Notes under the pieces: generated by a model
The model's input: only the letters and a program-made list of their open reading frames with translations
The model's database searches: none
What the model was told of the DNA's origin: nothing
Shown: positions 219 through 63,806 of the stretch, in pieces
How positions within the stretch are numbered: position 1 is the first letter of the stretch
Layout: each line of letters begins with the position of its first letter
Made by a program: the position numbers and the translations under genes
From: a phage
DNA length: 64,000 bases
Direction: 5' to 3' (one strand)
Sequence record: PQ478073.1

Positions 219-714
219 TACTAATATCTGGTTAGATAACATAATCAAGACATTAGAATTAATTAAACTTACATTACAAAAAACTACTGATATTGAAATT
301 AATATTAAACAAGAAATATTAAACTATTATCATAGAAACAAATATAGCACTTTTATCTCTAAATTAATTTATGGATTATATGATATTGAAGATATTTGCA
401 TCGGTTACAGTACTGGTATTTGCTTCACTGTTAATGGTTTAAAAAATGATTTAAATTTCAGACTTTCCGATGAAGAGCAAGATTTTCGTAGATTTTGTGA
501 TAATATTATGGATACAGACAAAATTACATTTGTGATTGAATTAAATCAAACATGGTCTACATATGCAGATAAACCATTTGAAATTAATGAAACAGATGTG
601 TTAAACTATATTCGAGTTATGAAAATTCATGATTTGTGTAAAAACGCATTGTTAAGTATTGGAGCTTATAATGAAACATACGACTTGGTTGAAGATAGCA
701 GAAGTAGTTGCTGA
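190..714 (+). CDS. hypothetical protein
   Basis: ATG at 190 with GAGG-like RBS; no recognisable domain. Confidence 0.45.
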   Translation: MKYTHLSIDDTNIWLDNIIKTLELIKLTLQKTTDIEINIKQEILNYYHRNKYSTFISKLIYGLYDIEDICIGYSTGICFTVNGLKNDLNFRLSDEEQDFRRFCDNIMDTDKITFVIELNQTWSTYADKPFEINETDVLNYIRVMKIHDLCKNALLSIGAYNETYDLVEDSRSSC

Positions 715-1150
715 GGAAAGTAAATGTATTTCACAAAAAGTTGGTTGTGTTATTGTTAAAAATAATAGAGTATTGAGTACTGGATACAATGGAACGCCAT
801 CTAAGCAGCCAAACTGTTGTGATGTAAATCAACATTTAGTGAACGATGGTCGTTTTCAAGACTGGGTTGATGATGCAGCAAAACATGAACATCATGAGTG
901 GAGTAATATTCATGAGATCCATGCAGAGATGAACGCTTTACTGTATAGTTCTCCTACTGAACGCCAAGGAGCAACTCTTTACACAACTCTACAACCATGC
1001 TATACTTGTTCTAAGTTAATCGCAGGTAGTGGGATTACCCGTGTAATTTATCACAAAAGTTATCCACGAACACCACCTGAAGCGATTAAAGTACTGGAAG
1101 ATGCTGGGATTATTGTTAACTGCATTTATGACAAGGGTATGAATCAATGA
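671..1150 (+). CDS. cd: dCMP deaminase (cytidine/deoxycytidylate deaminase zinc-binding family)
   Basis: HAEMNAL and PCYTCSKLI zinc-binding motifs; ORF-track start is TTG at 659, ATG at 671 has GGAG RBS. Confidence 0.8.
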   Translation: MKHTTWLKIAEVVAEESKCISQKVGCVIVKNNRVLSTGYNGTPSKQPNCCDVNQHLVNDGRFQDWVDDAAKHEHHEWSNIHEIHAEMNALLYSSPTERQGATLYTTLQPCYTCSKLIAGSGITRVIYHKSYPRTPPEAIKVLEDAGIIVNCIYDKGMNQ

Positions 1151-1401
1151 CATTTATGATTGTTGGATTACTATCAATATTAGTATTATTTTTTATAACA
1201 GTAATGTTTGTTATTGATGATAATGACATTTCTCAACGAAACTATGAAGTGCGTTTTTCTGCACAAAATAATAAGTACTATATTGTAAACTGTATACACC
1301 GTAGTGAGAAAAGGGTAACAAGTAGATTTGGATTTACCATTTATTATAAAGACCGAGTAGAAGCTGACATGATTTGTCAGAAGCTTAATACTGTAGAATA
1401 A
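1147..1401 (+). CDS. small membrane protein
   Basis: N-terminal hydrophobic helix; ATGA overlap with upstream stop. Confidence 0.45.
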   Translation: MTFMIVGLLSILVLFFITVMFVIDDNDISQRNYEVRFSAQNNKYYIVNCIHRSEKRVTSRFGFTIYYKDRVEADMICQKLNTVE

Positions 1402-1428
1402 AAAAAGGAGCCAGAAGGCTCCTTTTTT
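1401..1428. terminator. bidirectional intrinsic terminator between convergent genes
   Basis: A-run, GGAGCC/GGCTCC stem with AGAA loop, T-run. Confidence 0.6.
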
Positions 1429-1429
1429 G

Positions 1430-1807
1430 TTAACCAGGGATGTTACAATAATACAAATCCCAAGGGTGATATTTCATTTCTCCAGTACTCAATTTAATTT
1501 TATGAAACTGGAATGATTCGGCAAATGCACTATCATCAATCTTAATACAAAAAGTATTTTTTGCTAAAGTTGGTGCAATCTCTAGTGCAGTTTTAGTTGC
1601 ATCTAATCTGATTTTATCTTTATCAAAACTTGTTATAGTTACAAAACGATAAACATTAAAATCAGTGTCGATAAGATCGTAAACACAACTAGAACGTTGA
1701 TTAAAGATGTTCAAGTTATATTTCAATTCACCGTTTATATTAGCGGCGGTTACACAAAAGCCGCCGATATTGAATGGTAATTTACCTTGTGCTGCTATAG
1801 CTTTCAT
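1430..1807 (-). CDS. hypothetical protein (lone minus-strand gene)
   Basis: 125-aa ORF; AAGAGGA RBS upstream on minus strand; convergent terminator at its 3' end. Confidence 0.5.
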   Translation of the reverse strand: MKAIAAQGKLPFNIGGFCVTAANINGELKYNLNIFNQRSSCVYDLIDTDFNVYRFVTITSFDKDKIRLDATKTALEIAPTLAKNTFCIKIDDSAFAESFQFHKIKLSTGEMKYHPWDLYYCNIPG

Positions 1808-1959
1808 ATTTTATTTCCTCTTATTAATAAACAACTACTTTTACAGATTGTTGTACCTTTTATATTTACACCGTCAACTAAATATCCACCTAAAGTGAAT
1901 GGAAATTGGTCTTGTCCTGCGATTGGTTCCCCCATTAAGGGCACTCCTTATAAAAAAGC

Positions 1960-1989
1960 TTTACATTTGGTATGGGTTTGTGATAGAAT
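1960..1989 (+). promoter_or_regulatory. putative sigma70-type promoter (TTTACA N18 TGaTAGAAT)
   Basis: -35/-10-like hexamers upstream of 2117 gene. Confidence 0.3.
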
Positions 1990-2116
1990 CTTCACAGTGA
2001 TTGTACTAAGGGGATTATCAGATGAGGGAAATTTGAGTTAAGTACAGAAAAAGTTTGACTTAAGTGTTTAAGTACTATATTATTTATATCTTCCTAACCA
2101 AAATTAAGGATTTGTT

Positions 2117-62207: not shown

Positions 62208-62236
62208 GAGAACGGAATTTTCCGTTCTCTTCTTTT
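62208..62236 (+). terminator. intrinsic terminator
   Basis: 9-bp perfect stem, T-run. Confidence 0.65.
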
Positions 62237-62242
62237 ATAAGT

Positions 62243-62270
62243 GGGACAACTTATAAAAATATGATATAAT
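62243..62270 (+). promoter_or_regulatory. early-type sigma70 promoter (GGGACA N16 TGaTATAAT)
   Basis: promoter family consensus. Confidence 0.6.
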
Positions 62271-62304
62271 AGTTAATGTACCAATATACATGGAGAGTAT
62301 TAAA

Positions 62305-62550
62305 ATGGAACAAGAAAATAATCAAATTCAACTAACCCTTCTAGACCTAATCAATGCTGCAAAAATCATGGAAGCTGCTGTTGCACGAAACACCTTTAAA
62401 GTTGAAGAACTCGTTGAGGTTGCTCCAGTTGTATCTAAATTTGTTTCTTTTGCAAATGTAGCTCTTGAAGATATTAAAGCACAAGAAGATGCAGCTAAAG
62501 AAGAAGCTGAATCACAAGATAGTGAAACTCAAGAAGATAAAGGAGAATAA
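62305..62550 (+). CDS. small acidic protein
   Basis: ATG 62305 with GGAGAG RBS. Confidence 0.45.
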   Translation: MEQENNQIQLTLLDLINAAKIMEAAVARNTFKVEELVEVAPVVSKFVSFANVALEDIKAQEDAAKEEAESQDSETQEDKGE

Positions 62551-62552
62551 TT

Positions 62553-63209
62553 ATGGCAGCTATTCGTCATGTTGGTGTAATGCGTAATACAGGTTCTCGT
62601 GTTTTTGTTGTTTGGCGTTCACTACCAGATGATCCTGAACACTGCCTTATTGTTTATCGTGATTCACTACCAGAAGCATATGTTCACGCAGTAACTGATA
62701 TTGTTATGGGTCATGGTCAATCTAATATTGATTTGTGGGAAGTAATGCATAAAATTGGTTATCTCGATGGACGCAAAATGCTAGATGTTCTACACAATAT
62801 GCAGCATCTACGTCGCGTTCGTACTTGTGACATTGATATGCACACTGGTGGTAATAATAAAATTTCTCTTGATGTTCTAAACAAAGCATTAGATGAAAAT
62901 CAAGCAAAAGTACAAGAAGATGGTAAAGTAAAAGACTTTAACCCATTCAATCCACAAGAAGCGGACACTAAAGTAGAAGAAGCTACTATTGTAGAACAAC
63001 TTCTCACTGATGCACAAAAATATGAAAAACTGGCTAAAGAACATTATGAACGTGCATATAATTTAGAGCCAAGTTTGCGTCCACAAACACAAGTTGTTGA
63101 ACAACCGAAAGATAGTAAAACAATTTATCTAGAAATTCCAGAAGGTATTTCACAGACTAAAGCTATTGAGAAAGTAAAACAACTATTTGCAGAACGTAAA
63201 GCAAAATAA
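62553..63209 (+). CDS. hypothetical protein
   Basis: AAGGAG RBS. Confidence 0.5.
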   Translation: MAAIRHVGVMRNTGSRVFVVWRSLPDDPEHCLIVYRDSLPEAYVHAVTDIVMGHGQSNIDLWEVMHKIGYLDGRKMLDVLHNMQHLRRVRTCDIDMHTGGNNKISLDVLNKALDENQAKVQEDGKVKDFNPFNPQEADTKVEEATIVEQLLTDAQKYEKLAKEHYERAYNLEPSLRPQTQVVEQPKDSKTIYLEIPEGISQTKAIEKVKQLFAERKAK

Positions 63210-63212
63210 AAT

Positions 63213-63806
63213 ATGAAAAAGAATGAATTAGATGAAGCAATAAAAGGTTTATCTAATGTATGTTTTAGTGGCGGGGCAGCAGGTGCTGACCGCCTTTTTT
63301 CTATCTATGCAAAAAATAATGGATTTGAAGTTATTAATTTTTCATTCAAAGGTCATGAGCATAGTGTAGATGAAAGTACTATATTAGAAATACCATCCAA
63401 TATTCTATCTGATATTTCTATATTAAATCAACTAAACATTGCATGTTACTCGTTACAGCGAAAAGTACCGAAGCCTGGTTCTTATGTTTACAACTTACTT
63501 GCAAGGAATAGTTATCAGATACTTAATACAGAAAGAATATATTGTATTGCAAATATCACATCACCAACTAAGGTAAGTGGTGGTACTGCATGGGCAGTAC
63601 AGATGTATATGGATTCAGTTGAAAATCCTGAAATTTATTGTTATGATATGAATTCACGTTCAGTATTTTATTTCGATACAGTACTGAAAGAGTTCACACA
63701 AACATTCGTCGTTCCAGCACCACATGGTAACTGGACTGGTATTGGTTCACGCAATGCCACCGAAAAACATATGGAACATTTTATTACATTTTTCAAGGAA
63801 GAATAA
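63213..63806 (+). CDS. hypothetical protein with Rossmann-like FSGGAAGAD motif
   Basis: glycine-rich nucleotide-binding-like motif near N-terminus. Confidence 0.45.
   Translation: MKKNELDEAIKGLSNVCFSGGAAGADRLFSIYAKNNGFEVINFSFKGHEHSVDESTILEIPSNILSDISILNQLNIACYSLQRKVPKPGSYVYNLLARNSYQILNTERIYCIANITSPTKVSGGTAWAVQMYMDSVENPEIYCYDMNSRSVFYFDTVLKEFTQTFVVPAPHGNWTGIGSRNATEKHMEHFITFFKEE

Follow-up and report, generated by a model that had tools for sequence, protein, structure and literature searches.

AGTACT, a highly iterated palindrome of jumbo phages and unrelated prophages, as a candidate recognition word on phage DNA

The 64,000-nucleotide stretch of phage DNA in sequence record PQ478073.1 (hereafter the window) is densely sown with the palindromic hexamer AGTACT, in part as the core of the octamer CAGTACTG, and this word is the lone exception to an extreme avoidance of palindromes in the phage. 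The array is a highly iterated palindrome, like the cyanobacterial HIP1 in kind; new are its phage setting, its occurrence in two unrelated lineages, its standing as the sole palindrome exception and the existence of a motif-free domain. The reading that we favour, at a probability of roughly 40%, is that selection maintains AGTACT (in its extended form TTnCAGTACTGnAA) as a recognition word, read on double-stranded DNA by a factor with two-fold symmetry, and that the word marks phage DNA apart from host DNA. A literature search found no published description of AGTACT enrichment. The window matches Asteriusvirus jumbo phages (PBECO4/121Q group) at 99–99.8% identity, among them Salmonella phage SD-15_S21, Escherichia phage vB_EcoM_E9.1 and Sharanji, and the near-identical 367,851-bp genome of E9.1, in which the window corresponds to approximately 79.8–143.8 kb, was used as the reference.

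A reading of the window made from its letters alone (the sequence-only reading) had listed 33 positions for CAGTACTG and put its AGTACT core at well over 100 copies. Exact counting bore this out: all 33 coordinates are exact (the first copy at 408–415, the last at 63679–63686), and the core is present 139 times. Dinucleotide-preserving shuffles of the window gave 0.77 ± 0.87 copies of the octamer (maximum 3) and 16.4 ± 4.1 of the core (maximum 28). Shuffling synonymous codons within each open reading frame (ORF) of the window, which preserves the protein and the per-gene codon usage and therefore yields a null that already contains the motif-inflated codons, gave 47.5 ± 4.6 copies of AGTACT (maximum 61; z ~20 for the observed count) and 5.3 ± 1.4 of CAGTACTG (maximum 9). 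The sequence-only reading had staked its proposal on the count not falling within about two-fold of a codon- and dinucleotide-preserving null; the excess over the synonymous shuffle is 2.9-fold for the hexamer and 6.2-fold for the octamer. Shuffling codon order within the ORFs gave 34.0 and 3.8 copies respectively.

The 98 ORFs called in the window, 94 of them on the plus strand, cover 91% of the sequence and hold 127 of the AGTACT sites; the other 12 are intergenic or border on intergenic DNA. All three frames are used, with 59 sites read as Ser-Thr, 44 as x-Val-Leu and 24 as x-Tyr-x, in agreement with the readings noted earlier, and the extended forms that had been seen to recur do so (TTCAGTACTGAAAC three times and TTCAGTACTGAA four times). 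The sites are spaced almost at random (mean gap 461 bp, coefficient of variation (CV) 0.82). In form, then, the likeness to HIP1 that had been suggested holds, this being an exact short palindrome dispersed through every frame and through intergenic DNA; and the occupation of all frames and of intergenic DNA, together with an excess that outlives codon-preserving nulls, shows selection at the level of DNA, as had been claimed. The chance that the array is a by-product of composition, codon usage or amino-acid content is practically nil. AGT, ACT, GTA and CTG are common codons, and the codon-aware null is indeed higher than the dinucleotide one (47 versus 16); the observed count nonetheless stands far above both, the frames are similarly enriched, intergenic DNA is denser in sites than coding DNA, and sites are conserved far beyond control hexamers (see below), so that the synonymous and codon-order shuffles and the conservation of sites together rule such an artefact out.

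E9.1 is recorded as a linear genome with a terminal repeat of 20 kb, and contains 1,030 copies of AGTACT and 223 of CAGTACTG, or 897 and 190 once the second copy of the repeat is removed. Over the resulting 348 kb, the 897 sites compare with approximately 100 expected, a nine-fold enrichment. Within genes there are 749 sites against 214 ± 13 after synonymous shuffling, with frames 0, 1 and 2 enriched 3.2-, 4.0- and 3.8-fold, and intergenic DNA carries 5.9 sites per kb by comparison with 2.45 in coding DNA. Density is highest in the terminal repeats, at 6.5 sites per kb; counting coding DNA alone, the terminal repeat has 4.4 sites per kb, the part of the genome that includes the window 2.5, and the conserved structural and replication genes 1.6–1.8. 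By comparison with approximately 2.6 sites per kb on phage DNA, one 50-kb sample of the E. coli K-12 chromosome has three (0.06 per kb).

This abundance stands amid an almost complete loss of other palindromes. Of the 64 six-base palindromes, 27 have no copy in the window, where together they would be expected 97 times; the PstI, BamHI, KpnI, SalI, SphI and NcoI sites are among these 27. GCGC is absent from the window (32 expected) and from the whole genome (181 expected). The E9.1 genome lacks GCGC and 22 six-base palindromes altogether, and all other palindromes save AGTACT are at most 1.5-fold enriched. Avoidance is partial for GATC, GGCC and CCGG, which stand at about half of expectation or lower, and the EcoRI, EcoRV and NdeI sites are not avoided. 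AGTACT is the window's only enriched six-base palindrome, at 8.0-fold over a first-order Markov model with the runner-up at 1.8-fold, and when it was itself tested as a target of restriction avoidance it proved enriched 8- to 9-fold rather than depleted.

HIP1 (GCGATCGC) offers the closest likeness, as it too is a short exact palindrome that exceeds its expected count by tens of times, inside genes in every frame as well as between them, with a hexamer core and weaker outer bases. The word described here differs in having an AT-rich AGTACT core (CAGTACTG rather than GCGATCGC), in belonging to viral genomes of two unrelated lineages of enterobacterial phages rather than to the cellular genomes of cyanobacteria, and in occurring amid extreme avoidance of other palindromes in a genome with a motif-free domain. 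A further difference is that no cognate methyltransferase is tied to AGTACT; Elhai is said to have reported in 2015 that HIP1 tracks with CGATCG and GATC methyltransferases. To our knowledge the reader of HIP1 has been unknown for decades.

The word itself is sharply defined. Across the genome AGTACT is enriched nine-fold over a first-order Markov model and each one-mismatch variant at most 1.9-fold; in the window the one-off neighbour AGTATT/AATACT stands at 1.00-fold, with no depletion. The flanks extend the palindrome to a consensus of TTnC-AGTACT-GnAA, that is TTnCAGTACTGnAA: the base before the hexamer is C at 44–47% of sites and G at only 6–9% (47% and 6% in the window), positions -3 and -4 favour T, and the bases downstream form the mirror image. 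This symmetry is seen on the plus strand of the window alone, although nearly all of the ORFs lie on that strand: C on the left and G on the right occur at 62 and 70 sites, G on the left and C on the right at 11 and 6, and the flanks are T-rich and A-rich respectively out to four bases. Mirror symmetry on the gene-bearing strand speaks against an RNA signal and for a reader of double-stranded DNA with two-fold symmetry, and the sharp fall-off of one-mismatch variants points to such a reader too.

Enrichment extends well beyond the source phage. Using homologous regions of approximately 47 kb per phage, AGTACT was found enriched 6.2- to 10.5-fold in three further Asteriusviruses, 7.0-fold in Klebsiella phage RaK2, 5.9-fold in Salmonella phage PHA46, 6.7-fold in Yersinia phage fHe-Yen9-04, 7.0-fold in Cronobacter phage GAP32 and 7.5-fold in Xanthomonas phage XbC2; it is a trait of the whole sampled Rak2-like clade, across many host genera. 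The corresponding values are 0.5-fold in the jumbo Vibrio phage 2.275.O, 0.1-fold in PA5oct and 0.2-fold in Atu_ph07, and 50 kb of phi92 contain no copy against 17 expected.

Individual sites are conserved as well. Window sites were aligned to relatives, with hexamers of equal composition as controls, and AGTACT was retained at 69% of sites versus 43% for controls in a relative at 85% DNA identity, at 83% versus 33% in one at 81% identity, and at 71% versus 16% and 48% versus 13% in two relatives at 73% identity. Sites that were lost or gained differ by many different substitutions, none of them dominant, with C/T changes making up 19 of the 75 single differences. The absence of a dominant substitution path, taken with the undepleted one-off neighbours, looks like selection on the whole word and not like a one-step repair bias, and a footprint of very-short-patch repair, of the kind known for CCWGG/CTWGG in E. 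coli, was rejected on the same figures and on the lack of a Vsr gene beside the methyltransferase.

A second lineage carries the same word. A scan of the IMG/VR database for two CAGTACTG copies within 30 bp returned Rak2-like genomes and a set of viral contigs of approximately 25–34 kb with a G+C content of 41–42%, which are 80–91% identical among themselves and have the genes of ordinary tailed phages (a lambda-GpA-type terminase, a portal and a protease-capsid fusion). AGTACT is enriched 14- to 16-fold in these contigs, at about one site per 230 bp, and approximately 40–45% of the sites are CAGTACTG. Their flank signature matches that of the jumbo phages, with C at -1 in 61% of sites, G in 6%, and T at -3 and -4 (TTnCAGTACTGnAA). 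GC-rich palindromes are at zero in them, which is weak evidence of avoidance given that only one to four of each are expected. Protein searches placed their close relatives in the chromosomes of Leclercia and Yersinia, as prophages with a large serine recombinase: the Leclercia prophage (terminase identity 88%) has 3.5 AGTACT sites per kb and the Yersinia prophage (64%) has 3.2. More distant members of the family, with terminase identities of 40–45%, are motif-rich too; an E. coli relative at 44% identity has no site in 21.9 kb, and a similar element at 40% identity in the record of Escherichia phage DCP80 has four in its approximately 28-kb element portion (five in the 50 kb read). When 100,044 bacterial genomes were scanned for three copies close together, local repeat arrays in unrelated taxa came up and, among the matches listed, no AGTACT-rich genome.

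Some of the distant members carry homologues of the two window tail genes, at approximately 50% identity for the 929-amino-acid protein and 29–40% for the 178-amino-acid protein. This sharing shows that the two lineages bearing the motif have exchanged genes or have hosts in common, and indicates a swapping of host-recognition modules between a jumbo phage and small temperate phages. As a whole this Enterobacterales prophage family is low in GC, with a size of about 31–34 kb; its rich members have three to five sites per kb, and its cargo includes a reverse transcriptase, a DUF3800 protein and a TIR-domain protein. The DCP80 record (PQ671644.1; 141 kb, filed under Tevenvirinae) looks chimeric: its first ~25 kb resemble a small GpA-terminase phage akin to the prophage family, and T4-like genes follow, with rIIA present twice in opposite orientations.

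We considered whether AGTACT might be a modification target in the manner of HIP1, that is, the site of a phage or mobile-element methyltransferase whose abundance arises from a methylation-linked process, as Elhai's model reportedly holds for HIP1 in cyanobacteria, or from a benefit of dense marks in strand discrimination or protection. AGTACT is a classic type II restriction site, cut by ScaI and its isoschizomers, and recognition of the word here is as sharp as that of type II enzymes. Related and co-resident phages avoid the hexamer as a restriction target is avoided, by contrast with its 8- to 16-fold enrichment in the motif-rich phages, and its full avoidance in phi92 and in the E. coli prophage argues that restriction pressure on AGTACT is real and that the motif-rich phages are somehow immune. 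The phage also has the enzymes for such a scheme: a motif search for DNA methyltransferases found only a Dam-family enzyme (PF05869, NPPY) and a C5 enzyme, the latter conserved in CBB (76%) and RaK2 (64%). Several observations nonetheless make this explanation unlikely. According to the RaK2 paper, 5-methylcytosine in that phage lies at a CpG-containing site, so that the C5 enzyme probably targets a CpG, and AGTACT has none; phi92 encodes a homologue 51% identical to the C5 enzyme and yet has no AGTACT; the fully sampled prophage-type genome has no methyltransferase motif; and the genes flanking the C5 methyltransferase of E9.1 encode no Vsr or other nuclease domain. The undepleted AGTATT and the small share of C/T differences also speak against it, and cytosine methylation alone would erode sites, not make them. 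The C5 methyltransferase was rejected as the cause on the RaK2 bisulfite result and the phi92 homologue, and with no Vsr-like gene beside it, a link between AGTACT and a phage methyltransferase is therefore unsupported, with the Dam-family enzyme left as a candidate. Two genes downstream of the C5 enzyme, at 276,313–276,828 of E9.1, lies a gene for a 171-amino-acid protein with a weak, sub-threshold match to MutS_IV (E 6e-4; 20.4 bits versus a cut-off of 22) that is not credible.

The distribution of the word has one conserved gap, outside the window. Positions 27,196–34,904 of E9.1 (7.7 kb) contain no AGTACT, with flanks at five to seven sites per kb and sharp boundaries on both sides. GTAC is as frequent there as elsewhere (9.1 per kb), but is followed by A in 60 of 70 cases and by T in none. 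The variant AGTACA occurs 41 times on the sense strand, in all frames and in varied contexts, and its complement TGTACT not once; G is the commonest base after it (~39%), as at the palindromic sites. Against synonymous shuffling, AGTACA is over-represented inside the domain (39 versus 13.0 ± 3.1) and at expectation in the window-equivalent region (32 versus 33.3). The homologous 8.0 kb of Ecwhy_1, at 78% identity, has no AGTACT, no GTACT and 43 copies of AGTACA, again with sharp boundaries. Like it, a second conserved AGTACT-free domain (E9.1 19,971–24,751) lies next to the left terminal repeat; the counterparts of the two in Ecwhy_1 are at 1–3,590 and 5,646–13,630 of the locus compared. Pfam searches with the genes of the motif-free domain matched no known function. 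The domain is found across Asteriusvirus and is motif-free in a relative diverged to 78%, and recent acquisition was rejected as its cause. AGTACT is thus actively excluded from one domain and swapped there for a specific, strand-oriented one-off word, AGTACA, which implies that carrying the site has an effect in cis from which this domain has to be spared. Phage T5 provides a partial parallel, since its first-step-transfer region by the terminal repeat is likewise kept free of a restriction site present elsewhere. In T5 that site is tolerated but not enriched outside the free region, which belongs to the first-entering terminal repeat; in the jumbo phage no part of the genome is richer in sites than the terminal repeat, the domain without them is found just inward of it, and a specific one-off variant stands in for the avoided word.

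The oriented variant bears directly on a further possibility, namely that a translocating helicase-nuclease or a nickase reads a directional word, for instance CAGTAC, as a Chi-like signal for nuclease control or recombination, in which case the palindrome, itself without orientation, would be two overlapping copies, one per strand, usable from either linear end. Density does peak in the 20-kb terminal repeats, which are the genome ends; CAGTAC and GTACTG are the most enriched 6-mers of the window; and the motif-free domain holds only the oriented half-variant AGTACA, at 41 to 0 and three-fold over the codon null. Virion DNA is linear in both lineages, judging from the linear E9.1 record with its terminal repeat and the lambda-GpA-type terminase of the prophage family, and the jumbo phage encodes a recombination set of UvsX/Y, an SbcCD-like complex and several exonucleases. 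We nevertheless regard a signal of this type as quite unlikely. The Chi sequences so far known lack symmetry and are recognised in single-stranded form, that of E. coli RecBCD being GCTGGTGG, a different word; most of the phage sites are full palindromes with symmetric flanks; AGTACA is at expectation outside the special domain; and a candidate enzyme common to both lineages was not found. AGTACT resembles Chi and the uptake signal sequences (USS) and DNA uptake sequences (DUS) of bacteria in kind: these are over-represented short words, at about one per kb or less, that mark DNA as self to a DNA-processing machine and are kept in coding DNA despite the cost to the protein. Those words are asymmetric and belong to bacterial chromosomes, with ComP, an as-yet-unidentified USS receptor and RecBCD as their readers, whereas AGTACT is a perfect palindrome in phages. 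As a separate observation, the 348 kb of E9.1 hold 17 copies of the Chi octamer GCTGGTGG and 13 of its complement, where a rough zero-order estimate gives about one of each (0 and 2 in the window); words related to it (TGGTGCTG, TGCTGGTG and CACCAG) head the k-mer lists, which may simply reflect runs of Gly and Ala codons.

Strand bias within the motif-free domain also raises the question of an RNA-level signal, with AGUACU in phage mRNA serving as a target of, or a shield against, an endoribonuclease that controls mRNA lifetime, much as GGAG does for T4 RegB. Nearly all genes are co-oriented, so each site is transcribed, and it is on the sense strand only that the special domain lacks GTACT, its complement strand carrying it. 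A reader of RNA would, however, require neither a symmetric word nor symmetric flanks on one strand, and sites are twice as dense in intergenic DNA and lie also upstream of -35 and -10 elements that are not transcribed; an RNA signal is therefore very unlikely.

In the terminal repeat of E9.1, an early region of small genes, AGTACT occupies two fixed places in sigma70-like promoters. It either abuts the -35 hexamer (AGTAC-TTGCAA) or stands just upstream of the -10 hexamer (AGTACT-G-TATAAT), and often both positions are filled, 20 bp apart. Among 50 sigma70-like promoters predicted under strict settings in E9.1, 24 contain AGTACT, starting 7 nucleotides (n = 13) or 27 nucleotides (n = 9) upstream of the -10 element. 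In the genome body, promoter pairs give the site spacing a small peak at 20 bp and signs of others at 40 and 60 bp; helical or other periodic spacing was otherwise rejected. Motif-bearing promoter-like matches in the window start at 2055, 5429 and 34925, in addition to a -10-like TATAAT over the site at 127. The features of the window are as follows (coordinates, strand, description).

127–63685, unstranded: dispersed AGTACT array of 139 sites by exact count, 33 of them CAGTACTG
127–132, unstranded: intergenic AGTACT overlapping a -10-like TATAAT (ttgaatgaaaAGTACTataat), with the same architecture as the terminal-repeat early promoters
2055–2085, plus strand: sigma70-like promoter, TTGACT, 15-nucleotide spacer and TATATT, with AGTACT covering the end of the spacer and the first -10 base
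3312–3324, unstranded: pair of sites 7 bp apart (CAGTACTTAGTACTG)
26154–29481, plus strand: two tail genes, of 178 amino acids (26154–26690) and 929 amino acids (26692–29481)
34900–34953, plus strand: two sites, at 34900 and 34920 (20 bp apart), of which the latter abuts a -35-like TTGCAA, as in the terminal-repeat early promoters
36915–36938, unstranded: pair of sites 18 bp apart (CAGTACTGG...TAGTACTG)
41593–41621, unstranded: intergenic pair of sites 23 bp apart
60771–62195, plus strand: ORF of a DUF2201/VWA protein with no internal AGTACT, one site overlapping its stop codon at 62195

The placing of the densest sites and of promoter sites in the terminal repeat recalls TF1 of phage SPO1, an abundant phage protein selective for phage DNA. 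The preferred sites of TF1 lie over early promoters of the terminal redundancy, and it switches early transcription off. It differs in recognising hydroxymethyluracil DNA and not a sequence word, and the promoter link seen here is not seen in phage CBB; no TF1- or HU-like reader was identified among the proteins examined here. As AGTACT is self-complementary, any two close copies can form a hairpin, as uptake sequences do in the terminators of Neisseria, and the stem of one intrinsic terminator predicted in CBB, Torf26 (supplement, PMC5259590), consists of two motif copies (AGTACTGG ... CCAGTACT).

Host proteins with a related site were also examined. SlmA recognises a 12-bp palindrome, GTGAGTACTCAC, that shares the AGTACT core and is read by a dimeric helix-turn-helix protein; by its published specificity it needs G, T, purine, A and G at positions 1–5, with a pyrimidine at position 6. 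Sharanji, which is 99% identical to the window phage over the stretch compared, causes filamentation, with DNA spread through the cell, and encodes no known division inhibitor, so that the array could in principle be a decoy for SlmA or a means of hijacking it. This is extremely unlikely. Among the ~900 sites in 348 kb, GTRAGYRCTYAC occurs in none and GTNAGTACTNAC in one, GAGTACTC is absent from the window, and no site in the genome is a full match to the required specificity; the outer G-T is absent or disfavoured, and a purine at position 3 is disfavoured, since C precedes the hexamer far more often than G, so the flanks run opposite to those that SlmA needs. The LexA (SOS) box, CTGT-N8-ACAG, was considered since TACTG and CAGTA would supply its half-sites 10 bp apart, and was likewise rejected: the required 18-bp motif spacing occurs four times among 897 sites, with no excess, and the preferred short spacing of motif copies in E9.1 is 20 bp.

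Taken together, the wholesale loss of other palindromes, the maintenance of about 900 AGTACT sites and the sharing of the word by unrelated prophages argue that some factor must read it on phage DNA. We infer that one single factor does so, that it is a factor of phages and not a general protein of the host, and that the benefit lies in telling self from host DNA. Such a reader would be a dimeric DNA-binding protein or a type-II-like enzyme; the difference in density between phage and host DNA would make the word a genome-wide tag favouring action on the former; and in Asteriusvirus, where AGTACT is built into early sigma70-type promoters at two fixed positions, the factor would act there in the manner of an operator-binding protein. 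The process that it governs could be transcription, protection, replication or recombination. The functions that the sequence-only reading had offered for the word (a protein-binding site, a modification or nicking target, a recombination or packaging signal) are narrowed but not settled: a symmetric reader of double-stranded DNA is indicated, the host candidate SlmA is excluded, and a link to a phage methyltransferase is not supported.

A number of results weigh against a self-marking word with a symmetric reader. The reading factor itself is not identified among the candidates examined. Comparison of the prophage-type genome, which was fully sampled, with E9.1 by blastp, phmmer and tblastn detected T4-type lysozyme as the only shared gene, to which some members of the family add the tail genes; Pfam gave no match for the non-structural genes of the small phage, and no non-structural gene common to all motif-rich prophage relatives was found. 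HNH nucleases are present in both lineages and were rejected as a shared reader, as they belong to different subfamilies (PF01844 versus NUMOD4 plus HNH_3). The reader is thus not an obvious shared phage gene, and on the sequences compared no phage-encoded reader common to both would be visible, unless it were small and fast-evolving, host-encoded, or supplied from phage to phage. AGTACT is missing from the sigma70-like promoters published for the related phage CBB, which speaks against a promoter element conserved across the clade; promoter use is therefore lineage-specific or partly a matter of duplicated cassettes, and the association seen in the terminal repeat may owe something to such duplication. 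Spacing in the genome body is essentially random (CV ~1.1) and gives no structural clue. Finally, GTACT is missing from the sense strand only of the motif-free domain, which a purely symmetric double-strand reader does not predict.

An extended form of the recognition-word proposal, unlikely as it stands, would make AGTACT a sequence-encoded self tag of the Rak2-like jumbo phages. A phage-specified factor would direct protection, transcription or replication to tagged DNA, the host chromosome being ~40-fold poorer in the word; small Enterobacterales prophages would independently have copied the tag with its flanks so as to survive or exploit infection by jumbo phages; and one early-proximal domain would be kept untagged, by way of AGTACA, to escape the factor. 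If AGTACT were such a tag, it would mean that jumbo phages that form no nucleus tell their own DNA from that of the host without base modification, and it would expose molecular mimicry between prophages and virulent phages.

Over-represented words such as Chi, the uptake sequences and HIP1 are rare cases in which a genome writes an address label into its coding DNA. The AGTACT case concerns culturable E. coli phages with easy genetics, in which both reader and benefit are directly testable, and it comes with contrasts built in: related phages with and without the word, unrelated prophages that share it, and a domain with a single-base variant in its place. From a practical standpoint, ~900 ScaI-type sites in a genome otherwise stripped of such sites predict either host-range limits or an unrecognised protection in phages that have been proposed for therapy.

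Two further loci of the window deserve mention. The ORF at 60771–62195 is the sole window ORF longer than 900 bp that is free of internal AGTACT; related records label its product an HNH endonuclease, but the protein is in fact a putative metallopeptidase (DUF2201) with a VWA domain, and the ORF adjoins an ATPase gene (59371–62195 for the two together). The conserved product of 33283–33723 is ferritin/Dps-like (DUF5856) and goes under the annotation of starvation-inducible transcriptional regulator; it occupies the same locus in the annotated Rak2-like relatives compared and is possibly a DNA-coating protein, but nothing ties it to the motif.

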